A DNA stretch of 64,000 nt from Anaerolineae bacterium (lineage in GTDB: Bacteria > Chloroflexota > Anaerolineae > B4-G1 > SLSP01). The stretch spans positions 132,498-196,497 of the forward strand of contig JBNGDL010000002.1 in NCBI GenBank assembly GCA_049975205.1. Reading direction: 5' to 3'. Below, piece by piece: positions 2,494-49,223 of the stretch (positions are counted from its first letter, which is position 1; every line of letters starts with the position of its first letter). The notes under the pieces are model-generated. The model was given only the letters and a program-made list of their open reading frames with translations. It was not told the origin of the DNA and ran no database searches. The position numbers and the translations under genes are program-made.

Positions 2494-2571
2494 GCTAGAA
2501 TGGGGGTGCAAACCGTTCTCAAACATTAACTGAAAGGTTATGATCTGGGTTTCGGATTTTAACTGTTTTTA

Positions 2572-2580
2572 TGTTATACT
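2572..2580 (+). promoter_or_regulatory. Candidate extended -10 promoter for the signalling cluster
   Basis: TGtTATACT (TG at 2572-2573, TATACT at 2575-2580) lies in the only AT-rich stretch (2494-2624) upstream of the first receiver gene. The -35 is poor (best TTCGGA, 18-nt spacer). Confidence 0.4.
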
Positions 2581-2624
2581 GGGCACGATCCGGTGGCGTG
2601 CCGATAGCTCGATCGAGGTGCCGC

Positions 2625-3005
2625 ATGAAGATTCTCTATGTTGAGGATAGCCCTTCGAATCGCTTGCTTGTGAAACGTGTGCTCATGGCTGAGGATTACG
2701 AGGTCGTCGAAGCGGAGGATGGCTTAGCCGGTCTCGAGGTCGCTCGTCAGGAGCACCCCGACCTGATTCTGATGGATATGAATCTTCCGGACGTAGACGG
2801 CTACGAGATGACGCGCCGGATCTGCAACGACCCAGAGTTGTCTCACATCCCCGTGGTTGCGATGACGGCGAACGTGATGCAAGGGGATCGAGAGAAAACG
2901 CTTGAGGCTGGCTGCGTTGGATACATCCCCAAGCCAATCGATGTGGACGCGCTGCCTTCTCAGGTGGCGCGTTTTCTTGAGAGCGAGGCTAAGAAACCCA
3001 GATGA
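2625..3005 (+). CDS. Single-domain response regulator (CheY-like receiver), RR1
   Basis: I place the start at ATG 2625 (MKILYVEDSP...); the listed 2571 start lies in the promoter region. Receiver motifs are 'YVEDS', acceptor Asp in 'DLILMDMNLPDVDG', 'VVAMTA' and 'YIPKPI'. It is 126 aa with no output domain. Confidence 0.85.
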   Translation: MKILYVEDSPSNRLLVKRVLMAEDYEVVEAEDGLAGLEVARQEHPDLILMDMNLPDVDGYEMTRRICNDPELSHIPVVAMTANVMQGDREKTLEAGCVGYIPKPIDVDALPSQVARFLESEAKKPR

Positions 3006-3421
3006 AATGGAGCGCCACGCCGCCGTCGGAGGCGGTCATCCTAATCGTCGAGGATAACCTCAACAACTTCATCTTGATGACGAGGCTACTTGCTTTCCTG
3101 GGGGTCAAGAAATGCGAATGGAAGGCCTCGGGTTGGAAAGTCCTGGAGTTTGCCGAAACGCTGGGCAAAATCGATCTGATCTTGATGGACATTGCCCTTC
3201 CGGATGCTGATGGCTATGAGTCGCTGAAATCCTTACGGTCCGACGAGCGGTTTCAGGACGTGCCGATCGTAGCCGTGACGGCTAACGCTTCTGTTGAGAA
3301 CTTCCAGCGCGCCAAGAGAGAGGGTTTCGACGGGTTTATTGGCAAGCCCCTCGATCCGGAGCGCTTTCCAAACCAGGTGAGAAGAATCCTGGGGGGTGAG
3401 GAGGTATGGGAGCGGGTCTAG
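3002..3421 (+). CDS. Single-domain response regulator (CheY-like receiver), RR2
   Basis: ATGA start/stop overlap with RR1 (3002-3005). Receiver motifs are 'ILIVEDN', 'DLILMDIALPDADG', 'IVAVTA' and 'FIGKPL'. It is 139 aa with no output domain. Confidence 0.85.
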   Translation: MKWSATPPSEAVILIVEDNLNNFILMTRLLAFLGVKKCEWKASGWKVLEFAETLGKIDLILMDIALPDADGYESLKSLRSDERFQDVPIVAVTANASVENFQRAKREGFDGFIGKPLDPERFPNQVRRILGGEEVWERV

Positions 3422-5787
3422 TCGAGCCACGAGAATCAGCCCCAGATGTCCCCCGTGTCATTCCGACGACGGGGATGCGGGGCGGATTGGGAAGGACGCT
3501 GCTTACCGCATTCCTGATTCTGACCATCCTGCCTCTGGTCGTGATCGGGGGCTATGCTGCCCAGCAGAACCGCCGGAACCTAGAGGAAGAGGCGGCCTCC
3601 CGCTTGCTGGCAATCGCGGCCCTTAAAGGAGAGATGCTTCTGCGCTGGATTGAGGAGCTCCAGGCGATCACGGCGTCGGTGGAAGGGGGGAGCATTCGGT
3701 CGGCCCCTGCCGAGACCTGGGTACGTCTAGAGGAGCAGGTGCCGGAGTTGCGCGGCGCGGTGGTCCTGGAGTCGGGCGGTACCCCCGTATGGCAGTTCGG
3801 CGGGTGCGAGCGTGCCGTTGAGGATCACATGCCTTCTCTGAGTTCCGTTTCCAGTGGAAGCCTTCCAACTCCGTTTGCACTCTACACGCCAGAGTCGGTT
3901 GCCGTCGTCCCTGTCTCTACGCCTGGAGGGACTTGGATTCTGTGTCTGCAGGACGCCGCTCTCGACGGCGTTATCAACACCGATGCCGGTATCGGGGAGT
4001 CAGGACGGGTCCGTTTGATCGTAGCCTCCTCAGTCTGGCCCAGCGCTTGGGGCTCCGTGGAACCCTTCTTGGACTCTGGGATTGACATTTCAGAGCCCCG
4101 AACCGCGATGTACGAGGACGAGGAAGGCGAACAAGTCATCGGCGCCTTCTATCCACTTCCCAACCTCGATGGAGGCGTCCTGGTCGAGCAGGCCCAGACT
4201 GAGGTCTTGGTGTCCACAGAGCGCATCGCGGCAACACTGATCGCGCTGGTCATGGCTGTCGCGCTCTGCTCCACGGCGATCGCTGCCGTCGTCATCCGCC
4301 AGATCACGCGCCCTGTGATAGAACTGACGGAGTCTGCTTTGGCGATGGCCGAAGGCGACCTGGATCAGCACCTCTCGGTGCGCTCTCGGGATGAGATAGG
4401 CATTCTCACGTTCGTCTTTAACGAGATGGCTGCCGAGCTGCGCTCGCTCTACAAGGACCTGGAGGCGAAGGTCGTTGAGCGGACACGAAGGCTTCAGCGG
4501 GCTAACTATCAGATACAACGGCGGGCTCTGCATCTGCAGGCTAGCCAACGAGTTAGCCAGGCGATTACCTCGATCCGGGATCCGGATCTGTTGCTTGGAC
4601 AGGTCACTGACCTGATTCGAGACTATTTCATCTATTCCTCGGTGGCCGCTTACCTGGTGGCTCCAGGTGGGGGTGAGGCACGGCTTCAGGCATCTAGTCC
4701 GCAACCCGGTCCGGAGGAGCTTGAGGGGAGTCACGACGGCTGGCCACAGAAGCTGCGGGCAGGAGATGGCTCGATCGTGGGTCGCGCGCTCCGGAAGGGC
4801 ACGTCCCAGGTGCATAATGAGCCAGCGCCCTCAGAGTATGGTTGGAACACTCTGATGGTGAGCCGCGCCGCGATCCCGATGAAGATGGAGGATCGCATGG
4901 TGGGCATCATTGGGGTTCTGACGACCGTCCACGAGGGCATCCAAGAGGATGAGTTAGAAGTGTTGGAGGTCCTGGCCAACCAGGTGACGATCGCTCTAGA
5001 GAACGCCCGTGCCTATGAGCGCGAGCGCCTGGCTATCGAGCACCTGGAGACGGCGGAGGCCTTCAAGGGGCGGTTCCTGGCCAACATGTCGCACGAACTT
5101 ATGGAGCCTCTCAACACGATCATTGGGTTCTCGCGCGTGCTTCTGAAGGGGATTGACGGTCCACTGACCCGGCGACAGCGGGAGGACCTAGAGCAGATTC
5201 ACGGGGATAGTCAGCATCTGCTGCTGATGATCAACGACGTGCTCTCGATCTCGCAGATACAGGCGGGGTTGGTGGATCTGCGATTGCAGAGCGTGGATCT
5301 TCACGAGCTCGTGGATGGTGTCCTGCCCACCGCAGGGGCTCTGATCCGGGGTAAGGAGATCGAGCTGAGGCAAGAGATCCCGAACCGACTCCCGTCAGTA
5401 CGCGCTGACCCTTCTCGGCTGCGGCAGGTGCTCGTGCATTTGCTCAATAACGCAGCTAAGTTCACGGAAGAGGGGGAGATCTGCCTTAAGGCGTGGACCA
5501 ACGACGGTGAGGTCTACGTGAGTGTAAGTGATACCGGGGTCGGCATCCCGGTCGAGGACCGGGAGCGGATCTTTGCCTATTTCGAGAAGGGGAACCACGG
5601 TGATGCCCGGCCCGAACAGGGGGCAGGGCTCGGGCTCGCTCTCTGCAAGGAGTTCGTGGAGCTTCACGGCGGCAAGCTCTGGGTCGATAGCGAGGTCGGC
5701 GCCGGCAGCGTGTTTACCTTCACTGTGCCTTTAGATGGTGTTTCTGAGGTGGATGCCCTTCAGACTTGTGGGCAAGAGGCCGGCTGA
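3406..5787 (+). CDS. Transmembrane sensor histidine kinase (periplasmic domain-HAMP-S-helix-GAF-HisKA-HATPase), protein A
   Basis: Two TM segments (LLTAFLILTILPLVVIGGYAA and IAATLIALVMAVALCSTAIAAVVI) flank a ~230-aa outside region. HAMP is 'RPVIELTESALAMAEGDLDQHL..DEIGILTFVFNEMAAEL' and the S-helix is 'LEAKVVERTRRLQRAN'. There is one GAF-like region. The H-box is 'FLANMSHELMEPLN' (His codon 5092-5094), the N box 'LLNNAAKFT', G1 'DTGVGI' and G2 'GAGLGLALC'. An alternative start is ATG 3475 (MRGGLGRTLL...). Confidence 0.85.
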   Translation: MGAGLVEPRESAPDVPRVIPTTGMRGGLGRTLLTAFLILTILPLVVIGGYAAQQNRRNLEEEAASRLLAIAALKGEMLLRWIEELQAITASVEGGSIRSAPAETWVRLEEQVPELRGAVVLESGGTPVWQFGGCERAVEDHMPSLSSVSSGSLPTPFALYTPESVAVVPVSTPGGTWILCLQDAALDGVINTDAGIGESGRVRLIVASSVWPSAWGSVEPFLDSGIDISEPRTAMYEDEEGEQVIGAFYPLPNLDGGVLVEQAQTEVLVSTERIAATLIALVMAVALCSTAIAAVVIRQITRPVIELTESALAMAEGDLDQHLSVRSRDEIGILTFVFNEMAAELRSLYKDLEAKVVERTRRLQRANYQIQRRALHLQASQRVSQAITSIRDPDLLLGQVTDLIRDYFIYSSVAAYLVAPGGGEARLQASSPQPGPEELEGSHDGWPQKLRAGDGSIVGRALRKGTSQVHNEPAPSEYGWNTLMVSRAAIPMKMEDRMVGIIGVLTTVHEGIQEDELEVLEVLANQVTIALENARAYERERLAIEHLETAEAFKGRFLANMSHELMEPLNTIIGFSRVLLKGIDGPLTRRQREDLEQIHGDSQHLLLMINDVLSISQIQAGLVDLRLQSVDLHELVDGVLPTAGALIRGKEIELRQEIPNRLPSVRADPSRLRQVLVHLLNNAAKFTEEGEICLKAWTNDGEVYVSVSDTGVGIPVEDRERIFAYFEKGNHGDARPEQGAGLGLALCKEFVELHGGKLWVDSEVGAGSVFTFTVPLDGVSEVDALQTCGQEAG

Positions 5788-5836
5788 GCCTGTGATGCGC
5801 TCGAAATGGATTGAGACACGGTGAGAGAGATGGCTC

Positions 5837-7840
5837 ATGTCTAAGGAGAGGATCAGCAGCGCCGTTACAGACGCTGTGACGGGATCGCGCAGGATGGCTG
5901 GGGATCCTGGGTACCTATCCAGCGACCAACTGCGCCGGATCCTGAGGATCGCCGCGCTCATTGTGCTGCCGCTGTGGGGACTGGTTGTGCTAGATCTTTA
6001 CGGCACGCCTCAGTCGTGGCTCATCACCCTCGCTGGCGGTGCGTTTGCCCTGCTCGTGATCGGGGCTTTCCTACCTTTACCTCGCACGCTCCGAGCCTGG
6101 ACGTTGCCCGTCGCGCTCTTCCTTCTGGGCAGTGTAGATCTGCTCGTCTATGGATGGACCGGAAGCGGTCGGGTGATATGGCTAGCAGCCGCCGCGGCGA
6201 CTGGCATCCTACTGAATGGGCGGTCGGGAGCTATTATCCTCGCTGCGGTCAGCCTGTTGCTGTTGGGCTATGTGGTGGTCTCCGGGGTGGGGCAGCTAGT
6301 ACCTGTGACACAGAGCCCTCAGCCACCGTTGATGATGCTCATCGCAGGGTGGGGCATCTTTGGTCTCTCTGGTGCGGCACTCATCGTGCTCCTGTGTCAG
6401 CTAGTAGCTGGGTTGCAGGGAGCGTTAGCGTTCGTTGAAGACGAGGCCCAACTTGCAGCCGCCGAACGCGACGAGAAGATAGCGCAGGCAACCGAACTGG
6501 AGGCGTCTGTAGAGGCTCTTGAGCGGAGGAACGCCCAACTGGAGGCGAGCCTTTCTGTGACCCGGCTGTTCTCGATCGTATTTGACCCCGAGGGACTGCT
6601 CAATCGGGCTTCGGAGCTTATCTCGGACCACTTTGGATTCGATCATGTAGCGATATATCTGATGAATGAGACCGGCGAATGGGCAGTGCTCCGGGCAGCC
6701 TCGTCGGTGCCAGGGAAGGAGCTCGTGCTCAAGGAGCAGCGAGTGCGGAGGGGAGAGGAGACGCGCGTGGGCTGGGTTGCCGAGCACCGGCAGCCGCGTC
6801 AGGAGGGTGTGTGCGAGCAGGTGCCGGCCTCGCTTGCTGTCGGCGATTTTCCTGGAAGCTGCTCGTTCCTCGCGCTTCCTTTGGTCGTCAATGGGCAGCT
6901 GCTGGGGATTCTTGATCTTCAGAGCAGTGACGAAAGCGCCTTTTTGGAGAGCGAAACGGAGGTGTTTGCACGGCTGGGGGAGCACCTGGCTCTCGCGATC
7001 AACAACGCGCAGCGCCTGGCTGACGAGGTCGTCCTTCTCGAGAAAGCCGATCCGTTCTATGCGATGACCAACCAACTGGCGACGGCGCGCTCGGAAGCGG
7101 AAGTCTATCAGATCATCCTTAACCCCCTTGTCGACTATAACCCCTCGCGGATTCTCGTGGTTCGTTCGTTTGACGACTCCAGAGATCTGTATGTGGTGGT
7201 CGATAGGGAGGCAGGGGTACCACCGGATGCGCTGGATGACGCACTGGTGTTTCCGGAGAAAGAGTTGGTCGATCTGCAGCCCTCCGGATTGGTCGATCTG
7301 GCGATCATCGGAACGGCTCTTGACGCGCCATTGTGGGCGGAGAACCTGTGGGATCTGGACTCCGAGCTCAGCCCCGAGCTTCGGATGGCCCTAGAGAGCC
7401 TTGCAGAGAGCAGCTCGGTTGGCGGGCTCTCCTTCATCCCCATCCGTTCGGAGCCGGGGTTTGAAGGTGGCGGTGACACCTCTACTGGTGGCAACACCCT
7501 TGGTGGCATCATTGTGCTCTACGGTACCGTGCATCGGTTTATGCCAATGGAGCGTCAGCTTCATAGACTCCTCACGGAGCTAGCTGGACCCGCTATAGAG
7601 CGCAGTCGGCTCCTTGCCGATGCACAAACACGGTTGGAGCAGGAACAACTGCTCTTTTCGATCGGTCAGCGACTTCGTGCCTCCTTCGACCCTGACGCGA
7701 TCCTGCGCACCACCCTAGAGGAACTTGGGACCCTGTTGGACGCTGAGTTGGCGGTGATTGAGATCAAGCCGGAGTTCGGTGAGCCGGAGGCCGGCTCAGG
7801 CGATGGGGCCGAGTCAGGCGAGCGCCTGGCAAGTGGGTGA
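5837..7840 (+). CDS. Polytopic (about 6 TM) membrane protein with coiled coil and 2 GAF-like domains, no output domain, protein B
   Basis: About six hydrophobic helices lie in aa 40-195. The coiled coil is 'EASVEALERRNAQLEAS'. The canonical GAF reads 'FGFDHVAIYLMNETGEWAVLRAASS...LALPLVVNGQLLGILDLQSSDESAF...LALAINNAQRL'. A second degenerate GAF contains 'LGGIIVLYGTVHRF'. It ends with the shared tail 'LLFSIGQRLRASFDPDAILRTTLEELGTLLDAELAVIEI'. No H-box or ATPase boxes are present. Confidence 0.7.
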   Translation: MSKERISSAVTDAVTGSRRMAGDPGYLSSDQLRRILRIAALIVLPLWGLVVLDLYGTPQSWLITLAGGAFALLVIGAFLPLPRTLRAWTLPVALFLLGSVDLLVYGWTGSGRVIWLAAAAATGILLNGRSGAIILAAVSLLLLGYVVVSGVGQLVPVTQSPQPPLMMLIAGWGIFGLSGAALIVLLCQLVAGLQGALAFVEDEAQLAAAERDEKIAQATELEASVEALERRNAQLEASLSVTRLFSIVFDPEGLLNRASELISDHFGFDHVAIYLMNETGEWAVLRAASSVPGKELVLKEQRVRRGEETRVGWVAEHRQPRQEGVCEQVPASLAVGDFPGSCSFLALPLVVNGQLLGILDLQSSDESAFLESETEVFARLGEHLALAINNAQRLADEVVLLEKADPFYAMTNQLATARSEAEVYQIILNPLVDYNPSRILVVRSFDDSRDLYVVVDREAGVPPDALDDALVFPEKELVDLQPSGLVDLAIIGTALDAPLWAENLWDLDSELSPELRMALESLAESSSVGGLSFIPIRSEPGFEGGGDTSTGGNTLGGIIVLYGTVHRFMPMERQLHRLLTELAGPAIERSRLLADAQTRLEQEQLLFSIGQRLRASFDPDAILRTTLEELGTLLDAELAVIEIKPEFGEPEAGSGDGAESGERLASG

Positions 7841-7846
7841 GGTGGC

Positions 7847-10705
7847 ATGCCATCGTTGCTGGTGTTGAGAATCGTACTGGTTGCCGGGGCATTTGTTGCC
7901 GGTGCTGGTGGCTTGCTGTTCGTGGCCAGACGACGGAAGCGCGAAGCTGCTGACATCTTGAGGACGGTACCCGATTCGATTCGACGGCGCCTCGGGCTCC
8001 ACATTGCGTTGATCGTATTGATACCCGTTGTGCTGATCGCAGGTGCTTCGCTGCTTCTCGGGATCCGTGCGAGCGAGCACCGTCTCTTGACGGCTCTGGA
8101 GGCCGCCGCAGAGATGCGCGTCGGCCACATTGAGACCTGGCGGGATGAGCTCCGGCTCGATGTGGCCATGCTGCACGGATTGGAGCTCGATAACCTCCAG
8201 GCACTTCTTTCCTCGCCCCGGGCATCGCAGGAGTTCGAGGACGCTTATGCTGTTGAAAGCCAACGGCTTCTCACTGCGCTCGAACCGCAGGGCAAGCTCG
8301 ACGTCATTGTCCTCGCGGATGCGCAGGGCGAGGTTGTCTTGTCCACAGCCTCATCGGACGAGCAGCCCGACATCAGCAAGGCAGCATTCTTCCCCGCAGG
8401 ATTGGAGAGTCCGTACGTGGGAGCCGTGACCCACTCTATCCTACTGGACGCACCCGCGATCACGGTCGCCATGCCGGTACCAGGCACTGACGGCTCGTTG
8501 GGCATCCTGGTAGGTCAGGCGACGTTAACCCATATTCGGGCGGAGCTCGCGGACCGGGCAGACCTGATCGAGACAGGCGAAGCATACGTCCTTGACGGGG
8601 AGGGGCGGTTCTTGGCGGGCGCGCTAGCCGACTCGATGTCTGCCTTGACCGTGGTCTCTTCCGAGGGCGTCGACAGCCTGCTGAGCTCCCGGCGTGATAC
8701 GAGCGGTCGCTACACCAACTACCGCGACGAGCCTGTGCTGGGCGTCTACCGTTGGCTCCCAGATCTTGAGTTGGCTGTGGTCGTCGAAGCGGAGCGCAAC
8801 GAGATCGTTTCGATGGCCCTACCAACGACGGGCTACACGTTGGCAATAGCCGTGGTCTCCCTGGCGCTGGCCCTCCTCGGAGGCGCTCTTGTCGCCGATG
8901 CCGTGTCGCGTCCGATTTCTGAAATGGCTGAAGCGGCGACCCGGTTTGCTCAAGGCGACCTGACTGCGACCATACCGATAGAGCGGCAGGATGAGCTTGG
9001 GCAGATGGCACTCGCGATCAATGAGATGGCGGAGCGTCTCCGTGAGACGGTGAGCGACCTGGAGGCACGTGTGGCTGACCGCACAGCTGACCTCGAACGT
9101 CGGTCGACGCGACTGCAGACGGCGGCGGGCATCGCCAGACAAGCGGCTTCGATCCGGGAGGTAGATGAACTGCTTCGCGTCGTTGCCGATCAGGTTGTGG
9201 AGCGGCTCGGCTTCTACCATGTGGGCGTATACTTGCTGGATTCTGCGCGTCGTCTGGCGGTCCTCCGGGCTTCAGCGGGTGCTGCCGGTGAGCAGCTCTT
9301 GACGCGGGGTTTCCAAGTTGCGATGGACGAGGAGGTTGTGGGGATGGGGAGGGCCATTGCCGCCGCGGCGTCCTCCGGGCGAGCAGCCATTGTTTCGGAC
9401 GTCCTGGTCGACGAGCGGTACTTAGCTGCGGCTGAGCTTCCCGAGACGCTCTCCGAGATGAGTCTGCCGATCAGGGTGCGCGATGAGATCGTTGGTGTCC
9501 TAGATCTACAATCGGATAGCCCGGGGGTCTTCTCCGAAGATGATGTGACCTATCTCCAGACTTTGGGAGACCAGATCGGCCTGGCCGTCGAGAATGCGTG
9601 GCTCTTAGCAGAGACTACGGAACGATTGCGGGAGACAGAGCGATTGGTTCAGGCGCAGCGACGCGAGGGGTGGTGGCAAATGGCGTCAGAGCGCCCGGTT
9701 TGGTCATATGTCTACGATGGCGTAGAGGTCATGTCTGTTGATGAGGCAGCGGCATCGTGGCTCAGTTCGACATCGTCCGAGGATGCTCCAGATGTCGTCC
9801 TACCGATTGGAGAGCGCGGAGATGAAGTTGGCTCTGTGAAGCTCAGACTGCGAGGACGCGATGGGTTGTCGCGCGACCAGATGCAGCTGGCCAGGGCCAT
9901 CATCGGGGAAGCAGGTAGCGCGCTGGAGCGCGCACGGCTCTTCGGCACGACGCAAGCGGCGCTGCAGGAAGCGAGCATTCTGTATCACTGCAGCCGCGCG
10001 ATGATGGGTGCAAACAGTGAACGAGAGGTGGTGTCCGTCATCGCAGATCACGTGGCAACGTCTGATATCGACCGCGTGATACTACTGGCGCGGGAGACCC
10101 TCGTTGACGCCGCACAGCCGACGGTAAGGGTCGTCGCGACCTGGAGCCAGGCTGAGGAAGGCTCCGTCCCGATCGGTCAGCGTTGGCCCCTGGACCGCGT
10201 CCCAGCGGTGGCTGGTGCGACCTCGGGATGCCGAGCGGTGAACGACGTTGCGGCGTCGGAGGTACTGGACTCAGTCTCGCGGGACGTGCTCCTTGAGGAT
10301 ATAGGGGTCAGGAGCGCGTTGATCCTGCCGCTTTCCTTGAATGGAGAGACCTTAAGGTGGTTGATCCTAGGCACCAGTTCTGTCCCCCACACCTTCCGCG
10401 ATTCTGAGATGCGGCTCTACCGCGGACTCGCCGATCAGGCCGCTATCGTGATTCGCAACTTCCAGCTGCTCGAGTTGGCGACTAAGAGAGCCGAGCGCGA
10501 GCGTCGAATCGCTGAGGCCGGCGCCCGCATTCGGCGTTCTACTGATATCCAGACGATACTGCAGACGTCTGTGAGCGAACTGGCCCGTGTTCTGGGGGCC
10601 CGCGAGGGCTCGATTCGTCTACATTCGGACGGCGACCAAGATGGGCCGGTTGATCGGCAGGATGAGCCCACTTCTCTGGAGGCTGGGGCTGATTCCAATG
10701 AATGA
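7847..10705 (+). CDS. Transmembrane double-Cache-like/HAMP sensor with ~3 GAF-like domains, no output domain, protein C
   Basis: TM1 is at the N-terminus. A ~300-aa periplasmic region has Cache-like strings ('VIVLADAQGEVVLSTA', 'YVLDGEGRFLAGA', 'YRDEPVLGVYRWLPDLELAVVVEAE'). TM2 follows, then HAMP ('RPISEMAEAATRFAQGDLTATIP..DELGQMALAINEMAERL') and the S-helix 'LEARVADRTADLERRSTRLQTAA'. The canonical GAF contains 'LGFYHVGVYLLD...LPETLSEMSLPI..IVGVLDLQSDSPGVF'. A W/Y.Y mini-GAF and a third GAF follow, then the shared tail. Confidence 0.75.
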   Translation: MPSLLVLRIVLVAGAFVAGAGGLLFVARRRKREAADILRTVPDSIRRRLGLHIALIVLIPVVLIAGASLLLGIRASEHRLLTALEAAAEMRVGHIETWRDELRLDVAMLHGLELDNLQALLSSPRASQEFEDAYAVESQRLLTALEPQGKLDVIVLADAQGEVVLSTASSDEQPDISKAAFFPAGLESPYVGAVTHSILLDAPAITVAMPVPGTDGSLGILVGQATLTHIRAELADRADLIETGEAYVLDGEGRFLAGALADSMSALTVVSSEGVDSLLSSRRDTSGRYTNYRDEPVLGVYRWLPDLELAVVVEAERNEIVSMALPTTGYTLAIAVVSLALALLGGALVADAVSRPISEMAEAATRFAQGDLTATIPIERQDELGQMALAINEMAERLRETVSDLEARVADRTADLERRSTRLQTAAGIARQAASIREVDELLRVVADQVVERLGFYHVGVYLLDSARRLAVLRASAGAAGEQLLTRGFQVAMDEEVVGMGRAIAAAASSGRAAIVSDVLVDERYLAAAELPETLSEMSLPIRVRDEIVGVLDLQSDSPGVFSEDDVTYLQTLGDQIGLAVENAWLLAETTERLRETERLVQAQRREGWWQMASERPVWSYVYDGVEVMSVDEAAASWLSSTSSEDAPDVVLPIGERGDEVGSVKLRLRGRDGLSRDQMQLARAIIGEAGSALERARLFGTTQAALQEASILYHCSRAMMGANSEREVVSVIADHVATSDIDRVILLARETLVDAAQPTVRVVATWSQAEEGSVPIGQRWPLDRVPAVAGATSGCRAVNDVAASEVLDSVSRDVLLEDIGVRSALILPLSLNGETLRWLILGTSSVPHTFRDSEMRLYRGLADQAAIVIRNFQLLELATKRAERERRIAEAGARIRRSTDIQTILQTSVSELARVLGAREGSIRLHSDGDQDGPVDRQDEPTSLEAGADSNE

Positions 10706-10774
10706 CCCACGGAGATCTGTCAGGATGACCGGTAGCGGCAGGCGCTACGCTTCATCCAGAGAGGGCTGCTTGCG

Positions 10775-12958: not shown

Positions 12959-13046
12959 TGGTCGAAGTTCAACCGTTTAGGCGGACGATCTTCTCGGAGA
13001 TTGAGGACGCCGTGACTGGTGTGGACCCGAGACGGGAGGATGTGCT

Positions 13047-20600: not shown

Positions 20601-22101
20601 GAGCCTGCTGGTCCCCGACGCTCGCGAGACTGCTGCACCCGACGCCGCGGAGCTTCCCCGGACGGACATGCTATCCCAGATGGGTGCGTCATTGCAGGTG
20701 GGCGACGAAGTGTTGGGTGCCATCCTCGTCAACGGGGCAGCGATCGAGCAGTTCACGCGTCGGGATCTGGATCTGCTGGAATTCCTGGCTACTCAGGTTG
20801 CATCGGCGCTCCAGAACTCCATCCAGTTTAGACAAACTGAAGAGGCCCTTTCTGTCGTGGGGCAACAGGCTCGCTACCAGACCAACATCTCGCAGGCCGT
20901 GGCACTCTTGAACGAGCGCGGCACGGATGCGACGGGTGATGTTCTCCGGCTGCTCGGCGAGGCGGCCGAGGTGCCAACTGTCCTCTACTTCGAGTCGAGG
21001 GTGAACGGAGACGGGAGCTACTGGTGTCTGCAAGCGCAGTGGGCCGCGCCCGGCCGTGCTCCTGACCGCCTCCAGGATCAGCGATTCCAGCGCTTGTCGA
21101 CCTCCGAGACTGACCCATGGGTGCGCTCGTTGAGGCAGCAGGGATACGTCATGGGTAAGCTGCGACACCTGCCAGGAGCTAAGGATGATGGCATCGTAGC
21201 ATCGGGGTCTGGCGCCGTTCTCGGGCTCGCGGTCCCCGGCGAGACGCGAATCCCGGCATTTGTCGCGCTGCTTAGAGACGACGCCGTGCTGTGGGAGGAT
21301 CAGGAAATCGTGGCGCTGCAGACGGCGGCGGCCGCGCTGTCAAACACGCTGGCCCGTGAGAGGCTTTTCGCGCAGGTCCAGCAGACCCTTAGCGAGACAG
21401 AAGCCCTCTATCGAGGAAGCGCTGCGTTAACCCAGGCTAGTGCTTATCAGGACATTCTGGATGTCCTGCTGGCGCACACGATCTTGGGAGAAGAACCGCA
21501 CATGTCGACCCTTCACCTCTTCGACCAGATGTGGAGCGGTGAGGAGCTGCCTACATACTCGGAGGTCGTGGCCTCTTGGAGCCGCGAGCCCCAGGCTGAG
21601 TTGCGGCGCAGATATGAGGTCCGTAAGTACGCCGACTCGCTTCGTGCGATGGAGGATGGGGCACCGGTGTTCGTAGAAGACCTTGAGCGAGACGCGATGC
21701 CGGATCGGAGATTGCACGCGCTCTTTGAGAGAGCTATGGGGGCCCAGAGTGTGGTCCTCGTGCCGCTAGTGGTCAGTGGGCAGAAGATTGGGTTTCTGCA
21801 CGCCGACTACCCGACGCCGCGCACTTTCCCCGAATCGGCACGGCGTCGTCTGGTAAGCCTTGCGCAGCAGGCCGCGATTGCGGCCCTCAACATCCGGCAA
21901 CTACGGGCCAGTGAAGCCCGCGCACGTCGCGAGCAGCTCATTCGGCAGATCAGCAGTCATATCCAGGAAGCACCCGACGTGCAAGGCGTGTTGGAGACGG
22001 CTGTCCGAGAGCTTGGACGAGCTTTCGGCACGTCTCACAATCGCATCCAGTTCCGACCGCCCAGCGGGGCTGGAGGGAGTCCGGGGGATGGCGATGCATA
22101 G
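17617..22101 (+). CDS. Transmembrane sensor (small periplasmic domain-HAMP-S-helix) with ~7 GAF-like domains, no output domain, protein H
   Basis: I place the start at ATG 17617. GGAGGA sits 7 nt upstream and the start overlaps the stop of protein G by 8 nt. Two TM segments flank a ~150-aa outside region. HAMP is 'TPLNLLAEGAAIVGAGELSHKIP..DEFGFVAQAFNEMAGRL' and the S-helix is 'LEQTVTERTAALQRRNAQLEAAS'. The canonical GAF contains 'FGFYHTGIFIVDDNKEWAILRSASSEGGRRMLARNHRLQVGQVGIVG..PDLPMTKSEMALPL..VIGVLDVQSQQVSAF'. The mini-GAF contains 'WARISNRARPVAYEYD'. Five further GAF-like repeats follow. The tail is 'ISSHIQEAPDVQGVLETAVRELGRAFGTSHNRIQF'. No H-box or ATPase boxes are present. Confidence 0.75.
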   Translation: MREAEVRRRGLSLRWRVILIVAGISLLLVTPVMLFVGRRYQNAYREAYWSKGDLATIQLRQTIRAISPFVETVGDAPGLAAYLQDIGANVSDFDFIALVDGNGRVLMHSIPGYEGRTLGELRDLAAGATERGPSDDPYSVVRRELPFGLTYLIWRSMPMPGNDQDELYIVVGERAALVDPPIYPLIAIGLLAAVLLVVLIRISLDRLVITPLNLLAEGAAIVGAGELSHKIPLDRDDEFGFVAQAFNEMAGRLEEIVTRLEQTVTERTAALQRRNAQLEAASLVGQEAARERNVNAILDTAVRAISDNFGFYHTGIFIVDDNKEWAILRSASSEGGRRMLARNHRLQVGQVGIVGHVAASGRPRVALNVGQDAVWFNNPDLPMTKSEMALPLISEGEVIGVLDVQSQQVSAFADEDISTLQLMADQLTVALNNARALEVTESALAELRALQVDFARSGWARISNRARPVAYEYDRVDTAPVAPLEVPAELAEGKVEHSLVTDGGVPMVLEELRAGNQVLGYLGLSDSRRTWSEEELAFIHSVGEQVALALDNARLFEDTQRNERQQYLISQVLQAASAPGLSSDEALVEIARVLAHGLDMAVAILTFEQLQVPVIQAHTFVSPEGEPLPLFVEGSGLSSEQSAFLQGLVETDGGSVAPLLGVTESPSAADPDARRTLRAYDTERVLYVPIRRASGLTSGCMSLVQYLDAPHFDSDTRELMETLAGQIAVVLENLTLSEETRQRSEELRQLYRISLRLAELLEPDDVLDELVSQGAVLLNADGANLWVYDANAEILALRSSNGGGAEGELGRRLRLGQGLAGMALAQQQTVRVDDYASWQDRIPDLVSPTLHATMAIPLVGRFGPLGVLVLLSRQIGFFGEREAGLGELFAAQGAAALENARLNQDAQRRAEEFSQLYEAGTDLITILDLEELLDRAADWARRIFAAERVVVTVRDPESGAFIRGQCASVPEYLVSQGADQAATDGLVERLMVSRESLLVPDARETAAPDAAELPRTDMLSQMGASLQVGDEVLGAILVNGAAIEQFTRRDLDLLEFLATQVASALQNSIQFRQTEEALSVVGQQARYQTNISQAVALLNERGTDATGDVLRLLGEAAEVPTVLYFESRVNGDGSYWCLQAQWAAPGRAPDRLQDQRFQRLSTSETDPWVRSLRQQGYVMGKLRHLPGAKDDGIVASGSGAVLGLAVPGETRIPAFVALLRDDAVLWEDQEIVALQTAAAALSNTLARERLFAQVQQTLSETEALYRGSAALTQASAYQDILDVLLAHTILGEEPHMSTLHLFDQMWSGEELPTYSEVVASWSREPQAELRRRYEVRKYADSLRAMEDGAPVFVEDLERDAMPDRRLHALFERAMGAQSVVLVPLVVSGQKIGFLHADYPTPRTFPESARRRLVSLAQQAAIAALNIRQLRASEARARREQLIRQISSHIQEAPDVQGVLETAVRELGRAFGTSHNRIQFRPPSGAGGSPGDGDA

Positions 22102-22170
22102 CGCGAGCCCGCCCAAGAAGCGTTCGATGATGGCCTGGTCGAGTTCCGTCGGCACGAGGGCACCATAGTT

Positions 22171-25100
22171 ATGTTCGAAGAGGACAAAGGCAAGATGGAG
22201 CTTGCAGCGGAACTGCGAGCCCTGCAGCAGCAGCTTTCTCACCTGTCCAAGGGGGATTTGGTCGAGAGAGTGCACTTCCTGCAGTCCCTCATCGATGCTA
22301 TCCCGACTCCGATCTTCTATAAGGATGCACGGGGTGTCTACCTGGGATGCAACACGGCCTTTGCCAAGCAGGTCTTGGGACTTGAGCGCGAGCAGATCAT
22401 CGGTCGCACGGTTCACGATCTCTCAGAAGTGATTCCTGCAGCTCTAGCCGATGTCTACCACAAACAGGATGTGGATCTGGTAGCGTCCCGTGGTACGCAG
22501 GTGTACGAAGCACCGGTCAGGTTCGCCGATGGCTCTCGGCGCCAGGTGCTCTTTAACAAGGCCTCACTCTTGGATTCTCACGGTGACGTCGCGGGTATGG
22601 TGGGCGTGATGCTGGATGTCACCGACACGCCGGACGAGGGGAGGCGACAGGTGGCCCTGCTGGAGGATGCTCAGCGGCGGGCCGTGCGACTGCAGACGGC
22701 GGCCGAAGTGTCCCGGATCGCCACATCGTTGCTCAGCCTTGACGAGTTGTTGCCGAAGAGCGTTGAGCTCATCCGCGAGCGGTTCGACCTCTATTACGTT
22801 GGCATCTTTCTCCTAGACGATCGGGGCGTGTGGGCAGTACTTCGAGCGGGGACCGGTGATGCGGGAAGGCAGATGCTCGAGGCCGGACATCGTCTCAAGA
22901 AGGGTAGCAGTTCGATGATCGGTCAGTGCGTGGCCGATGCTCAACCACGCATTGCCCTCTTCGTTGAGCAAGCGGAAGCTCGCTTCGACAACCCCTTGTT
23001 GCCCGAGACGAAGTCCGAGATGGCGCTGCCGCTGGTGGTACGGGGCAACGTGATCGGGGCTATGACGATCCAGTCGGAGGTCTCGGGTGCGTTCACAGAA
23101 GAGGATATCACGGTTCTCCAAACGATGGCAGATCAGCTTGCCAACGCGATTCAGAATGCGCGGCTCTTCGAGCAGATGAACCGGGCCGTCAGAGAGAATG
23201 AGACGCTTTACAACGTCAGCTCCGTTGTGGGACAGGCTCGCTCGCTTGAGGATCTCGTGCGCGCTGCGGTCGATGTTGCATCGTTCCTCGAGATGGATGG
23301 CGCGGCACTACGCGTCTTCACAAAGTGGGGCGTGGACGGTATTCCAACGGCAATGGATGTCTACGGCTTCACGCTTCGCTCTGGAAAGCCAGAGGCCTAT
23401 CACGAACGCAACACCCCTTTCAGCAAAGAGCTCTATCACTGGGTTCTCGCCGATCCCACTCAGGTTCTGATCTACGAGGATCTCGAATACCCGGCGCGCG
23501 ACATTCCCGACACGATCCGAGGGCCTATGTTGCGAGGGGGCAACCGGAGCCTGATTATGGCGCCGCTTCATTTCCGCGGTCGGGCCCAAGGTATTCTCGG
23601 CCTCTTCGGTGCCAAGGCCCTGCGGGCCCTGCCAAATCATTACGTGGAGGTCTTTGCCCGGACTCTGCTCGATCAGGTCGCGTCGGTGCTGGATCGACAA
23701 TCCCTGACAGATGAACTGGCCCAGCGCGCCTCGTACCTAGCAGCAGCGGCCGATGTCTCGCGTTCTGCTTCCTCGTATCTCGATGAGGATCTTCTCCTTT
23801 CGCGGAGCGCAGACCTGATCTGCAAGCGCTTCGACCTGGCCTATGCCGGCCTGTTTCTGCTCGATGATTCCGGGCAGTTTGCTCTACCCCGAGCCAGCCA
23901 CGGCGATGACCGATGGCAAGTCGTGGAGCGTAGTTATCGGGTGACAGCCGAGCGCACTTCCGGCATTGTGGCCTCTATTCTCGATGGGCGCGTGGTCGTT
24001 GATCTGGACCGTGAACGCGAGGCGACAGGGAGGCAGATGGAGGATTCGAACGGGCACCTTCAGAGCTCCAGTGCAGCCCTGCCTTTGATCACGCGCGGTG
24101 AAGCCATTGGCGCGTTAGTCATCCGACCTAGAGAGGGCACCTATCTGTCAAAGGACGACCTGGCGATCTTCGGTACCTTGGCCGACCAGCTGGCCAACGC
24201 CATCGCTAATGCGCGGCTGTATCAGGCCTCCCAAGAGAATCTCGCTGAACTGCAGCGTCTCCAACAGCGCTATGCGCTGGACATGTGGGACGAGTATGTC
24301 GATCGCCAGGAGATCGTTGGTTATACCTACGACCTCAATCAAGTCTCACCACTGATGACATTCGACGAGATGGAGCTCGACACCACCCTGTCAAGCGGCG
24401 ACGAGCAGGGCCGCTGGAGGCCTCTGGTGCAGCGGGGCAACGAGAGTGGAGATGGCGCATCTCTGCGACAGGCGTTGCAGATCCGTGGGGAGCCTGTGGG
24501 CCTGATCAGCTTTGAGGAGCCTGGCGCAACCGTGGACTGGACGGAAGATCAGATCATGGTGCTGGACGCTGTGCACGAGCAGCTGGAGCTCGCCCTTGAG
24601 AACCGGCTGCTGATTGACCGCTCCCAGCGTGCGCTCCAGGAGGCCCGACAGCGCGAGTCTGAGCTGGCGTTCCTGCAGGAGATCTCAGCTCTACTCAATG
24701 CCACCAACGATGTGGTCGGTGCCCAGGCGGAGCTGCTGACGCGTCTGCGGGAGTTCGTCTCGGTTGATCAGCTCACGTTGGCAGGATATCAGCAGGATGG
24801 CGTCCTTCGTTTGTTGGGGAGCACGGGGAACGCCATGCTAGCCTACGGCGCCTTGGGTGATACCGTGTTTGCGGACGGCTCTGGCTTCCAGTGGGTCGCG
24901 ACGAACGGGTCGAGTGTCTCCGAGGCAGACCTGCGGCTGGAGCAGCGCTTCCGAGAAGATGAAGCCCTCGCCGCTCAGGGACTGGCCTCGCGCCTTCTTA
25001 TGCCACTCATGCTTGGGCAACGCATATTGGGCGTCCTTGAGCTCGGCAGTGTTCAGCCTGAGGCCTTCGAGAGATCTGAGTTAATGCCGGTCCTTCTGCA

Positions 25101-28100
25101 AGTTGCAGCACAGGTTGCATCGGCGATGGAGCGGGGGAACCTGCTTCGAGTCGCGCAGCTTAGCGCAGAGGAGTCGCGACGGCTCTATGAGGCTACGAGT
25201 GATCTCGCTGAGGCTCTAGATGCAGAGGACGTCCTTGAGGCCATTGCGCGCCATGCGTTCCCGGATGCCACAGCGTGCGCAGACATGGCGCTCTATGTGA
25301 CCGATCCTGCTACACGGGCCGAGCATGACTGGCTGGAGGTTGTGGCCTCCCTTCGATCCGGCGACCGGCCCGCGGCGCTGGATGTGGGCAGTCGCTTGCG
25401 AGCCGATGAGATGCCAGCCCTCGCGCTTCTTGGTGAGGAACAGCTCATCTACGTTGAAGACATTGAGGCAGACCGCCGCTTGGACGACCAGACACGGCAG
25501 ACTTACCTTGCGAACGGGGTGGGCGCGTTGCTCATCGCGGCGCTCTCCACGGGGGTCGGCCCGGCGGAGCGGATGGGTATCCTGCGGATTCGCTTCAGCG
25601 AACCCATCGAGGTTGGCGAGTCGGATCTGCGACTCTATCGCACGGTCTCAGATCAGGCTGCTGTCGTTCTCTCAAACCGCCAGCTCTTCCAGGAATCGCA
25701 GGCCCGTATCGCACGGCAAGCTGTCGCGGTTGCGCTCGCGAACCTCACGACGTCTCTGTCGGAGCGGGAACCGCTGCTACTGGCCTCAGTCGACTTCCTC
25801 CGGACCCGCTTTGACCTCTACTTCGTGGGTATCTACCTTCTCGATGATCGAGGAGAGTGGGCGACACTGGAGGCCGGCACGGGCGAGGTCGGGCAGAGAT
25901 TGATGCGGATGGGGCACCGGGTGCAGGTGGGGAGCGATACGATGGTCGGTCGCTGTACCGATGAAGGTCAGCGACAGCTGATCCTGGACTTGGACCCAGA
26001 GGCGGCCTCGGTTGAGAACCCTCTTCTGCCGGATGCGCGTACGGTGACCGCTTTCCCGTTGATCAGTCGAGGTCAAATCAACGGTGTGCTCACGCTACAG
26101 AGCGCGCAACGATTCGCCTTCACCGAGGAGGATCTGGCAACCCTTGAGCTGATGGCGAACCAGTTGGCCAACGTCATCGAAAGCGCGAACCTATACGAGC
26201 GCTCGCAGAGCTCACTGGCAGAGACGAGGATGCTCTATCGTATCGCTCAGCAGATTGCCGACGCGCGGACGGTGCAGGCTGTGCTGCAGGCGGCCGTCGA
26301 TGGCATCTCACAGCGCAGCGAGCCGGATTGGGTCCTTGCCGGCGTGCTGGAGCCGCGTCAGGATCCCTCTGTGTTGCGTCTTGTCAACGTGTGGAATCGC
26401 GATGGGGGCTCTCTGCCCGTGAGCGAGCTCCCTCTCAACAAGATAGGAGAGTTCTATGAGTCGCTGCAACTGGAGGAGCGATTCGTAACTCCTGATATTA
26501 CACAGGACCCAAGGGCCGGGGGCCTGATGCGGCGTGTCTTCGCCAACCTCGGGGTCAAAGCGACGGCGGCCTTCCAGCTGCGGGTCCGCGGCGTCCAGTA
26601 CGGCACGATTATGATCCACAGTGAGAACACGCGGGAGTTCACCACAGCAGAGCTGAGCTTCTATGAGAATGTGGCGCGCCAGGCCTTTGTCGCGTTGGAG
26701 AACATCAACTTGGTTGAGGCCACGCGAGAGCAAGCTGAGCGGCGTGATATTCTGAACCAAGTGCTGCGAACGGCATCGAGTTCTCTCGATCAGCCGACGA
26801 TCCTGCAAGATGTCGGTCAAGTCATCGCCCACCGGCTAGACATGCCGGTCATGATGTGGGAATGGTCCGGGACTGGGCTGCGTCTGACGAGCCTACACGA
26901 CGCTGGCGGGCGCAATCTCAGGGTCGAGGCGGAGAGATGGCAGCTCAACCAGGCCTCAGAGGCGGCGTTGGCGCCGCTTCGTGCAGTGGTGGAGAGACGG
27001 CAACCTCTTGCCCTCCCCTCCGACGAGGCGTCCGTCCTGAGGGCATTAGGAGCGCTTCTGCGCACAGAGCTCGTCGAGGGATACGCGGTGCCCCTCACGG
27101 CGCGGGACGTGGTCTATGGTTTGATCGTCTTGGGCCGCCAGGAAGGGCACGACGAGATCGATGAGTCCGAGCGAGAGTTCATGCACAGTGTCGGCACCAA
27201 CGTGGCTGTGGCTTTGGAGACTGCGAGCCTTTACCGCGATGCTCAGGAGACCGCGGAGAAGCTGCGTGAAGTGGACGAGCTGAAGAACCAGTTCATGGCG
27301 AACATGTCCCACGAACTCCGGACGCCCCTGAACTCGATTATCGGATTCTCCCGGGTGATGCTGAAGGGTATCGATGGCCCTCTCACTGACATGCAGCAGA
27401 CAGACCTGAACGCGATCTACGACAGCGGTCGACACCTGCTGAATCTGATCAATGATATCCTCGACATCTCGAAGATCAACGCCGGTAAGATGGAGATTGT
27501 CTTCGAGCCGGTTGATCTCAAGGCCATGATCCAGAGCGTAATGTCCACGGCGATGGGATTCGTCAAGGACAAACCCGTCAAGCTTCGTACGGACGTCCCG
27601 GAGGATCTCCCGGTCGTCGTTGCGGACTCACGCAGGATCCGGCAGGTGCTGATCAACCTGTTGGGCAATGCTGGGAAGTTCACGGAGGAGGGCTTCATCG
27701 AGGTCTCTGCGACCTATGATGACTATCAGGTCATCGTCAGTGTGAGGGACACCGGCATCGGCATCCCACCAGATCGCATCCAGGCCGTCTTCGAGCAGTT
27801 TGAGCAGGTCGATTCTAGCTCGACCCGCCGGTATGGTGGTACGGGGTTGGGCGTACCCCTGAGCCGTGAGTTCGTGCGGCTCCACGGTGGCGATATGTGG
27901 ATACAAGAGTCCGTGGTCGGGCAGGGCACGACGTTCTGTTTCTCCCTTCCGATTGGGGGACCCGACACCCTGGACGAGGAGAGCGGCAGGGACAAGAGCG
28001 CTATGGGCCGGGTCGTGCTCACCGTAGATGACGACGAGAGCGTTGTGACGCTCTTCCGACGTTATCTGGAGAAGCAGGGCTATCGTGTGTTCGGCCTGAC

Positions 28101-28755
28101 GACGGGCGACCGGGTTGTGGAGGAGGCCAGACGTCTCAAGCCCTACGCCATCACGTTGGACGTCATCATGCCGGGAAACGACGGTTGGGAGGTCATTCAG
28201 CAGCTAAAGGCCGACCCGGAGACCTGTGAGATCCCCATCATTGTCTGTTCAATGCTGGGCGATAAGGATAAAGGCCTCAGCATGGGCGTGGCCGACTATC
28301 TGGTGAAGCCAATCTCCGAGGAGGCCCTGCTTGAGGCCCTTGAGCGGATCGGCGAGACTGAGAGGGGATATGTGTTGGTGGTGGATGATAGCCCGGAGGA
28401 CCGGAAGCTGCTGCGCCGCATTCTTGAGAGTGCCGAGTACAGGGTCGAGGAGGCTACCGGCGGGGCTGAAGGTATCGAACGGGTGCAGACCCATCGGCCT
28501 AGTCTGGTGATTCTTGATCTGATGATGCCGGAAGTGGACGGCTTTGCCGTGCTGGAGTGGCTTAAGGCTGAGCCGCAGACTCGTCAGATTCCGGTGATCG
28601 TTGTGACGGCGAAGGAGCTGGACGCCGAGGAACGCTCCCGTCTGCAGCAGCGGGTCGAGGCCCTGTTACAGAAAGGGCTCTTCGATCAGCAGCAGTTGTT
28701 GGAGGACGTGAGCTCGGTACTCTCTCGTCTTTCAGAAAAGAGGAGGCCTCATTAG
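22171..28755 (+). CDS. Cytoplasmic giant hybrid histidine kinase: PAS-(GAF x ~9)-HisKA-HATPase-REC-REC, protein I
   Basis: No TM segment is visible. The PAS domain contains '[31 protein letters not shown]...VGVMLDVTD'. About nine GAF-like repeats follow, and repeats 1, 3 and 7 are of the canonical type. The H-box is '[32 protein letters not shown]' (His codon 27310-27312), the N box 'LLGNAGKFT', G1 'DTGIGIP' and G2 'GGTGLGVPL'. REC1 contains '[27 protein letters not shown]' and REC2 contains '[28 protein letters not shown]'. Confidence 0.85.
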   Translation: [2194 protein letters not shown]

Positions 28756-28812: not shown

Positions 28813-28840
28813 TTGACGGCTTTGCTCTCTCGTGTACAAT
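28813..28840 (+). promoter_or_regulatory. Candidate sigma-70 promoter of the ferredoxin gene
   Basis: TTGACG (28813-28818), a 16-nt spacer and TACAAT (28835-28840). AGGAGG sits 7 nt before ATG 28913. Confidence 0.5.
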
Positions 28841-28912
28841 GATTGAGATGAGTGGGGGTACCCACAGCTTAGTTTTCCAGTGATCCTTTAAGAGTTTACA
28901 GGAGGTTCTTCG

Positions 28913-29179
28913 ATGGCGTATGTCATTACATCCCTATGCGAGCGCGCCGGACTGTGTGCCGACGTCTGCCCGACTGATTCGATCCATTTCGTCGACGACG
29001 ATCCCGATTGGCCCATCTACTACATCAATCCTGAGACCTGCATTGACTGCGGAGCTTGCATGGCGGAGTGCCCGAACGAGGCTATTTTCTCCGACTACGA
29101 TCTCCCGGAGGAGTATGAGGAGTACGTCGATATCAACGAGGCATTCTTTACAAAGGGACCCGGGGCGGATCTGGTATAG
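28913..29179 (+). CDS. Small ferredoxin, probably 7Fe type ([3Fe-4S] + [4Fe-4S])
   Basis: The first motif 'C-ERAGL-C-ADV-CP' is CxxxxxCxxxCP and lacks the second Cys. The second motif 'CIDCGACMAECP' is CxxCxxCxxxCP. It is 88 aa with a strong RBS. The overlapping +1 frame ORF (28920..29183) and the antisense ORF are rejected. Confidence 0.85.
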   Translation: MAYVITSLCERAGLCADVCPTDSIHFVDDDPDWPIYYINPETCIDCGACMAECPNEAIFSDYDLPEEYEEYVDINEAFFTKGPGADLV

Positions 29180-43404: not shown

Positions 43405-43448
43405 TCTCTTAGGGGCGTTTAGGACCGATCCACTTGGGGGGAGGAAGA

Positions 43449-47768
<4,320 letters not shown>

Positions 47769-49159: not shown

Positions 49160-49223
49160 GTGGGTCGTTGAGCAGTTCTCTGTCGCACGCCAGCGGGGCG
49201 GCGACTGAATCTGGAGGTATGGA

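Follow-up and report, generated by a model that had tools for sequence, protein, structure and literature searches.

An operon-like array of kinase-less GAF sensors with a common truncated-GAF terminus: a candidate multi-receptor two-component system of Anaerolineae

We analyzed a block of eleven consecutive plus-strand genes within a 64,000-nucleotide stretch of an Anaerolineae genome (contig JBNGDL010000002.1, positions 132,498 to 196,497; the whole stretch is referred to below as the window). The block encodes two single-domain response regulators (RR1 and RR2), a membrane histidine kinase (A), six membrane sensors devoid of a kinase (B, C, D, E, F and H), a binding protein (G) and a giant hybrid kinase (I). 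All six kinase-less sensors were found to end in one and the same C-terminal segment of approx. 45 residues, hereafter called the stub, a new feature that the original prediction for this locus, made from the sequence alone, had missed. Our best explanation, to which we assign a probability only slightly above one half (approx. 0.55), is that the array represents one copy of an operon-like two-component system with many receptors, lineage-specific to the Anaerolineae, of which we infer the coupling and the output from the sequence.

The array is built from known domains in an undescribed organization, of which the truncated-GAF tail is diagnostic. In agreement with the earlier statement that the locus matches no named signalling system, no description of such an array was found in the literature searched, the coverage of which was incomplete, and an earlier description elsewhere is possible.

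Organization of the gene array

The eleven open reading frames (ORFs) occupy positions 2571-28755 of the window and sum to approx. 8,620 codons (Table 1). They lie where they had been predicted (2625-28755, approx. 8,600 codons), and all of the predicted junctions match the sequence. Adjacent genes overlap by 4 nt (ATGA; RR1/RR2 and E/F), 8 nt (F/G, with ATG 16500, and G/H, with ATG 17617) or 16 nt (RR2/A), or are separated by gaps of 6 nt (B/C), 49 nt (A/B), 69 nt (C/D and H/I) and 88 nt (D/E). Consensus scans, which constitute weak evidence, detected promoter-like sites near the block solely in its head region (2473-2544) and, behind it, before a ferredoxin gene (28813-28840), and revealed no terminator-like match in the intergenic junctions, in agreement with the original prediction.

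Table 1. Coordinates of the genes, stubs and other features of the array (positions in the window, except for the last row, where they refer to the related loci; TM, transmembrane segment; HMM, hidden Markov model)
Feature	Position	Strand	Content and evidence
AT-rich head region	2473..2544	+	Two sigma-70-like promoter matches, consensus scan only
RR1, single-domain response regulator	2625..3005	+	ORF open from 2571; ATG 2625 gives MKILYVED...; Pfam Response_reg 2.3e-28
RR2, single-domain response regulator	3002..3421	+	Pfam Response_reg 4.2e-20
Kinase A	3406..5787	+	TM (31-49), extracytoplasmic region, TM (279-297), HAMP, GAF, HisKA, HATPase_c; Pfam
Sensor B	5837..7840	+	Approx. 6 TM (weak MASE11-like match), GAF, reduced GAF-like unit, stub; kinase-less
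Stub of B	7661..7765	+	Stub HMM E 2.1e-9
Sensor C	7847..10705	+	dCache_1, HAMP, GAF, reduced GAF, GAF, stub
Stub of C	10496..10621	+	Stub HMM E 2.7e-7
Sensor D	10775..12958	+	dCache_1, TM, linker helix, GAF, reduced GAF, stub
Stub of D	12815..12922	+	Stub HMM E 3.6e-9
Sensor E	13047..14756	+	Multi-TM domain (paralogous to that of F), GAF, reduced GAF, stub
Stub of E	14598..14702	+	Stub HMM E 1.9e-6
Sensor F	14753..16507	+	6-7 TM helices, long signalling helix, GAF, reduced GAF, stub; Pfam
Stub of F	16364..16498	+	First GAF helix and strand 1
G, lipoprotein-type periplasmic binding protein	16500..17624	+	Weak Pfam ABC_sub_bind match, E 2e-5, below gathering score
Sensor H	17617..22101	+	TM, approx. 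150-residue extracytoplasmic region, TM, HAMP, GAF, reduced GAF, five GAFs, stub
Stub of H	21928..22062	+	Stub HMM E 6.9e-7
Hybrid kinase I	22171..28755	+	Coiled coil, PAS, nine GAF/GAF-like units, HisKA, HATPase_c, REC, REC; without TM
Sister-clade tail kinases with orphan GAF head	L027 15164-19306; L069 13783-16809; L079 17574-21104; L065 16209-20090; 13 more loci

Pfam searches with the eleven proteins confined HisKA and HATPase_c to A and I, both of which have the H-box SHEL, and placed Response_reg in RR1, RR2 and, twice, in I. The acceptor Asp is intact in the receivers (contexts include LVILDLMMP), and the predicted set of two kinase cores and four receivers was thus recovered in full. 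The sequence of the DHp domain around the phospho-acceptor His is near-identical between A and I, which suggests that the two kinases share a partner specificity. The best solved relative of both single-domain regulators is DivK (1m5t, E 2e-29, for RR1; E 1e-14 for RR2). The HAMP (A, C, H), dCache_1 (C, D) and PAS (I) domains were assigned by Pfam, which also gave a sub-threshold match of D to an MCP-like PDC sensor; B, E and F start with multi-TM regions followed by GAFs, and G with a lipoprotein-like signal sequence.

The block contains 28 GAF or GAF-like units (one in A, two each in B, D, E and F, three in C, seven in H and nine in I), seven of which are of a reduced type. The count combines results of Pfam and of window-derived HMMs; hhalign was added for the two segments with the weakest matches (H 1084-1318, probability 96%; B 392-608, probability 89%). 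The total equals the figure of about 28 given originally.

The claim that the block lacks a recognizable effector was borne out. Pfam detected no HTH, GGDEF/EAL, HD-GYP, Hpt, STAS, PP2C or MCPsignal domain in the eleven proteins (E≤0.01), which leaves the block without an Hpt relay module at this threshold (I stops right after its second receiver), and all of these families were absent even at E≤1 from the unassigned fragments and the long antisense ORFs. CheA and CheW are missing from both the block and its neighbours.

The C-terminal stub and the cytoplasmic cassette

The stub consists of the end of a linker helix plus the opening helix and strand of a GAF domain, beyond which the chain stops; in F it reads ...IVGRIRALTSTDAILRSAAEQLGKALHVERSRIQLVQFDD. 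An HMM built from the stubs of F homologues matched no part of the block except the C-terminal ends of the six kinase-less sensors (Table 1): A, G, I, RR1 and RR2 gave no match, and the internal GAF starts of A and I were not recognized. Each of the six window sensors has a short acidic tail behind the stub.

A GAF paired with a reduced GAF-like unit (approx. 125 residues, signature RYQE..A..AWR) precedes the stub in C, D, E, F and H; in B this place is taken by a GAF plus a more divergent reduced unit (hhalign). The first GAF of this cassette is well conserved and, judged by its nearest solved GAFs by sequence, is of the fRMsr-like type. The pair occurs also in kinase I, where the window-derived HMMs identified three sensor-type GAF copies and one reduced unit. 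The common architecture of the sensors is therefore: input – signalling helix or HAMP – GAF – reduced GAF – (GAF)n – stub.

When approx. 390 stub proteins (see below) are compared in pairs, the first GAF is on average 43% identical; the corresponding values are 36% (stub), 28% (reduced GAF) and 20% (F-type membrane domain). Within the stub, Glu at position 30 and Leu at position 24 are conserved in 93% and 81% of the sequences, respectively, which would not be expected of a functionless remnant of truncation. The input modules vary among the homologues (dCache, 4HB_MCP, periplasmic binding domains and MASE-like TM domains), while the cytoplasmic cassette is constant, and since the latter is more conserved than the input domains, it looks like a shared transmitter. 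The original view that the locus invests its coding capacity in input and transmitter modules held in this respect, with one correction: the GAFs of the kinase-less proteins are apparently not simply input domains. Annotators should be cautioned that the same may apply to tandem GAFs elsewhere.

The stub-tailed sensors form a large unannotated family, the members of which are now labelled only "GAF domain-containing protein", and the stub is its diagnostic C-terminal motif.

Three functional assignments were rejected. The stub is not an Hpt- or DHp-like phosphorylation site, as it has no residue conserved to the degree of a phospho-acceptor His and matches neither HisKA nor Hpt. A role of the cassette as a bilin sensor was ruled out by the lack of a conserved Cys (no Cys is invariant in the F family, and the E and F proteins are entirely free of Cys), and the same lack rules out an fRMsr-type enzyme, even though the nearest solved sequences are GAFs of this type.

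In an AlphaFold2 model of full-length F (34 sequences; predicted local distance difference test, pLDDT, 81), 6-7 TM helices are succeeded by a signalling helix of 80 residues and then by a canonical GAF, a long helix, the five-strand reduced unit, a second long helix, the stub helix and a disordered segment of 15 residues at the end. The terminal strand was again unpaired in a model of residues 405-584 (91 sequences). Completion of the reduced GAF by the stub in cis is thus unsupported, with the last 14-15 residues left as coil in both models. The stub helix itself is either undocked or continuous with the preceding helix, and pLDDT values in this part are low (48-79); at this model confidence, the terminal strand looks free to pair with a partner. 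In Foldseek searches the GAF and reduced-GAF pair superposed on the GAF-PHY pair of phytochromes, and the short F model gave weak GAF, PHY and CodY matches at most, none better than E 0.014.

Occurrence of related arrays

The F protein is 100% identical to a protein of an Anaerolineae metagenome-assembled genome (MAG) and has more than 100 full-length homologues (40-57% identity). In order to compare gene contexts, we collected the surroundings of five F homologues and 79 loci from species-representative genomes (approx. 22 kb each; numbered here with the prefix L), called their ORFs and scanned these with the window-derived HMMs. Co-location of the genes in relatives had been set beforehand as one of the tests on which the original prediction could fail, and the prediction clearly withstood it. 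The same arrangement was found in 82 related loci of Chloroflexota, mostly Anaerolineae, and such recurrence shows that it is not due to chance. At least 483 related stretches are present among the species-representative genomes; the locus, originally described as unusual, is so in comparison with textbook systems and is common within the class Anaerolineae.

Across the 82 loci we identified 392 stub ORFs. In all but two of them (390/392) the stub lies no more than 50 residues from the C-terminus (median 14), and the tail beyond it is short and rich in Glu, Gly, Ser, Ala, Asp and Pro. A kinase was encoded in the same ORF as the stub in none of the 392 cases, and the stub is present in 352 of the 449 complete kinase-less GAF ORFs. 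The GAF genes are co-oriented (median 7 and maximum 13 per 22-kb locus); the opposite strand carries just 2 of them.

The gene order is conserved as well. F-G-H-I is kept at 41-57% identity in relatives (L003-L005, L009-L017 and L019), and the G-H pair is conserved in the related loci, with precomputed Pfam ABC_sub_bind matches for the G homologues of L003 and L005. At least 19 arrays start with orthologs of RR1 and RR2 in this order, the RR2 ortholog always following RR1; the identity of the pair, 50-77% (RR1 orthologs, 55-69%; RR2 orthologs, 50-77%), is above that of the sensors. A GAF-rich KIN-REC(-REC) protein occurs in 23 loci, mostly as the last gene of the array. No effector gene was found beside the related arrays, the neighbours of which encode EamA transporters, NMT1-type binding proteins and a pyridoxal phosphate (PLP)-dependent enzyme.

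A profile search (reduced GAF plus stub) against 1.84 billion representative sequences yielded 44,928 matches, 3,579 of them at 1e-30; giant multi-GAF proteins top the results, and the number of matches is therefore no measure of the size of the stub family.

Some of the loci deserve separate mention. L064 (contig JAGPEO010000064.1) is a typical stub-sensor array in a bin labelled Phycisphaerae, the sole non-Chloroflexota label among the 79 loci, which is probably a result of mis-binning. L002 and L006 lie on one 520-kb contig of a long-read MAG, in which the array is split into many short ORFs by what look like frameshift errors; this array was left out of the statistics. In one clade (L042, L045, L048, L054, L055, L061 and L070) the array ends with a hybrid kinase, an extra single-domain receiver and an EamA-family transporter, all on the same strand.

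Links between the sensors and the kinases

Natural fusions connect the two classes of protein. A 3015-residue protein of L018 (11828-20875) can be aligned first with residues 225-1510 of H and further on with I, beginning at residue 156, and its chain runs on into a complete GAF at the position equivalent to the stub. L030 (15969-20150) and L084 (12779-16195) encode HAMP-GAF-reducedGAF-GAF-kinase proteins. A further fusion of a sensor module with a hybrid kinase was noted in L066 (11162-21013), and such fusions reach 3283 residues.

The explanation that we favour may be outlined as follows. The six membrane sensors would take different inputs, through dCache domains (C and D), multi-TM domains (B, E and F) or, in the case of H, a HAMP sensor paired with the binding protein G. 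Having no catalytic output of their own, they would use the GAF-reducedGAF-(GAF)n-stub cassette as a transmitter. Through protein-protein contact, this may act on kinase A in the membrane and on I, the giant soluble hybrid kinase. These two kinases would then set the phosphorylation state of the DivK-like RR1 and RR2 and of the receivers of I itself. The final output would lie outside the block, and could be exerted by protein-protein interactions of RR1 and RR2 or by an unlinked Hpt protein and regulator. The anatomy, conservation, synteny and fusions described above, together with the lack of known effectors, are the observations from which we infer the sensor-kinase coupling, the direction of signal flow and the target.

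If this explanation is correct, the Anaerolineae, which are abundant in sediments, sludge and the subsurface, wire their main environmental sensing in a manner unlike that of textbook two-component systems, with up to 13 kinase-less receptors sharing a GAF-based transmitter and feeding a few kinases and DivK-like regulators. This would represent a second example of many-to-one receptor-kinase coupling outside chemotaxis, and it provides testable hypotheses (docking of the stub, targets of RR1 and RR2) concerning signal integration in filamentous Chloroflexota.

Several points weigh against it: (i) the monomer models, with their undocked, low-confidence stub, are uninformative as to a partner, (ii) the high conservation of the first GAF could reflect a common ligand instead of a common transmitter function, (iii) the head RR pair or kinase A is absent from some arrays, and the array of L005 begins after a methyltransferase gene, (iv) sensor number and the GAF content of the tail kinase do not vary together, (v) tandem duplication alone tends to keep paralogues adjacent, and (vi) contact of the sensors with A or I, and a single transcript, are predictions from the DNA.

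Alternative explanations

The most serious alternative, which we nevertheless consider unlikely, is that the stub proteins are independent one-protein sensors acting on unlinked targets and clustered by tandem duplication, with the flanking kinases and regulators forming a separate, ordinary two-component system. The sensors are clearly paralogous, the arrays vary in length from a few genes up to 13, and some contain no RR pair or kinase within the 22 kb retrieved, all of which would be consistent with such clustering. Evidence against it comes from the stop/start overlaps that tie the sensor genes to each other and to G and H, the recurrence of the RR1-RR2 head and the hybrid-kinase tail across clades, the natural sensor-kinase fusions, and the presence of the GAF-reducedGAF cassette inside kinase I itself.

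Two other readings appear improbable. The signal may flow in the reverse direction, i.e. the first GAF would bind a common cytoplasmic ligand or phosphorylated regulators, and the variable membrane parts would be the outputs (e.g. in transport or at the envelope). The first GAF is indeed the most conserved part of the sensors (43%), RR1 and RR2 are similar to DivK, a regulator whose signal runs backwards into a kinase-fold protein, and no other effector is visible. The N-terminal modules are, however, classical inputs (in the window dCache_1 and HAMP; in homologues also 4HB_MCP and periplasmic binding domains) accompanied by the dedicated binding protein G, and no transporter or enzyme family was detected in them.

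It is similarly doubtful that the stub proteins are truncated, dominant-negative copies of sensor kinases that heterodimerize with the kinases and damp them without conveying a specific signal. A truncation origin would fit the L018 fusion, in which the chain runs on, exactly where the stub sits, into a full GAF and then the kinase. On the other hand, every stub protein has its own, different input domain, and the stub is conserved throughout a family of hundreds, which points to a function in signalling that is under selection and not to inert decoys. Mechanistically, this reading overlaps with that of kinase-less receptors acting on A and I.

The long-read locus L002 (on the contig shared with L006) does show fragmentation of this sort, but it is very improbable that the array as a whole consists of pieces of one or two giant multi-GAF genes broken up by frameshifts in assembly or sequencing, because each gene has its own TM or sensor module and start codon, the stub sensors all end in the same stub and acidic tail, and identical gene boundaries occur in dozens of independent assemblies.

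A possible docking mechanism

A mode of contact between the stub and a kinase is hinted at by the tail kinases of at least 17 sister-clade loci (Table 1). These proteins start with a conserved MPKKKP..KRLxKLF motif, followed by a disordered Pro/Lys/Ala-rich linker and an orphan GAF fragment that corresponds to the end of the domain, with its last two strands and final helix (..LSLAFQAGQ..WATLQVLDE...W..DE.LLV.QV.DQLSLALENARLFQE). In the GAF/PAS fold strand 1 adjoins the last strand, and the first helix packs against the last one; the stub and the kinase head are therefore topologically complementary.

We tentatively propose, as an idea with the odds against it, that the stub is one half of a split GAF, a plug by which many receptors dock to one kinase through fold complementation. 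If true, this would be a principle of receptor-kinase docking not described for bacterial signalling. No orphan C-terminal half-GAF was found in the window kinases A and I, nor did close relatives of I contain one. At its start kinase I has a PAS domain instead, and a docking site of this kind would here have to lie elsewhere, which makes split-GAF docking at the present locus speculative.

Other features of the window

The block is preceded by a gene for an 823-residue membrane protein (weak YfhO match) and followed by genes encoding a ferredoxin, a PHP-family protein, a pyrophosphatase-like protein, QueA, a GH1 glycosidase and other housekeeping functions; no signalling effector was found among these flanking genes or those of the related arrays. 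The small 2x[4Fe-4S] ferredoxin gene (28813-29179, plus strand) lies directly after the giant kinase and has its own promoter-like site. In the 55%-identical relative L001, too, such a ferredoxin gene (21136-21402) comes directly after the giant kinase, and this adjacency probably reflects neighbourhood synteny and not function.

Three further regions of the window were noted. A 346-residue protein encoded at 55647-56687 (plus strand), in a position unrelated to the array, has a Pfam match to HisKA without one to HATPase_c, and may represent part of a kinase core or else a pseudokinase. Just downstream of rpoC (43434-47768), region 47995-50423 (plus strand) encodes an extracytoplasmic function (ECF)-type sigma factor, a 202-residue product without a recognized family, possibly an anti-sigma factor, and a bactofilin-domain protein. 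A 1199-residue ORF on the minus strand (34619-38218), which matches no Pfam family at E≤0.001, adjoins a gene for a PMT_2 glycosyltransferase-like membrane protein (38235-40280).

Comparison with known signalling systems

The core parts of a two-component system are encoded in the block, i.e. kinase cores with the phospho-acceptor His (A and I) and receivers with the acceptor Asp, while neither an Hpt protein nor a regulator with an effector domain was found by Pfam. In its long tandem GAF arrays ending with HisKA-HATPase-REC, the system resembles the multi-GAF phytochrome and cyanobacteriochrome kinases, and the stub resembles the usual start of GAF domains, as in cyanobacterial GAFs. In contrast to these photoreceptors, the GAFs of the array have no conserved chromophore-binding Cys and the sensors are kinase-less.

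LuxP-LuxQ and TorT-TorS are binding-protein-dependent sensor kinases. The overlap of the gene for the periplasmic binding protein G with that of the membrane sensor H, and the conservation of this pair, are reminiscent of these systems; unlike LuxQ and TorS, H lacks a kinase and ends in GAFs and the stub.

DivK~P is a single-domain regulator that acts by binding to kinase-fold proteins and has no effector domain (PMC5361649). RR1 and RR2 are likewise receiver-only proteins with DivK as the best solved relative, but the block, found in a member of the Chloroflexota, contains no DivL-type pseudokinase, ChpT or CtrA as in the DivK/DivL/CckA system of Caulobacter. The similarity is limited to the receiver fold and family, and a DivK-like action of RR1 and RR2 is putative.

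A mechanistic precedent is provided by NreA of the Staphylococcus carnosus NreA-NreB-NreC system, a GAF protein without an output domain which regulates the histidine kinase NreB by binding to it (PMC12423327). The GAF proteins B-F and H also lack an output domain and are encoded together with histidine kinases. NreA is a single soluble GAF, one co-sensor in a system with a DNA-binding regulator, whereas the array has six membrane sensors with tandem GAFs and a truncated-GAF tail, and no DNA-binding regulator. Physical, ligand-dependent binding of the kinases by the array sensors, in the manner of NreA, is putative, with indirect support from the synteny and the fusions.

In overall logic the array is comparable to the chemosensory pathways (MCP, CheW, CheA and CheY). 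In both cases, paralogous membrane receptors with diverse inputs (here dCache_1 and HAMP, and 4HB_MCP in homologues) share one conserved cytoplasmic module and are encoded along with a few kinases and single-domain receivers, and the output runs, in the array putatively, through a small CheY-like protein and not a DNA-binding regulator. The array differs in having no MCPsignal, CheA, CheW, CheB or CheR; its shared module is GAF-reducedGAF-stub, its kinases are hybrids of the HisKA type, and contact between receptors and kinases is presumed from the gene arrangement. The likeness to chemosensory pathways is thus one of analogy in logic, not of homology.

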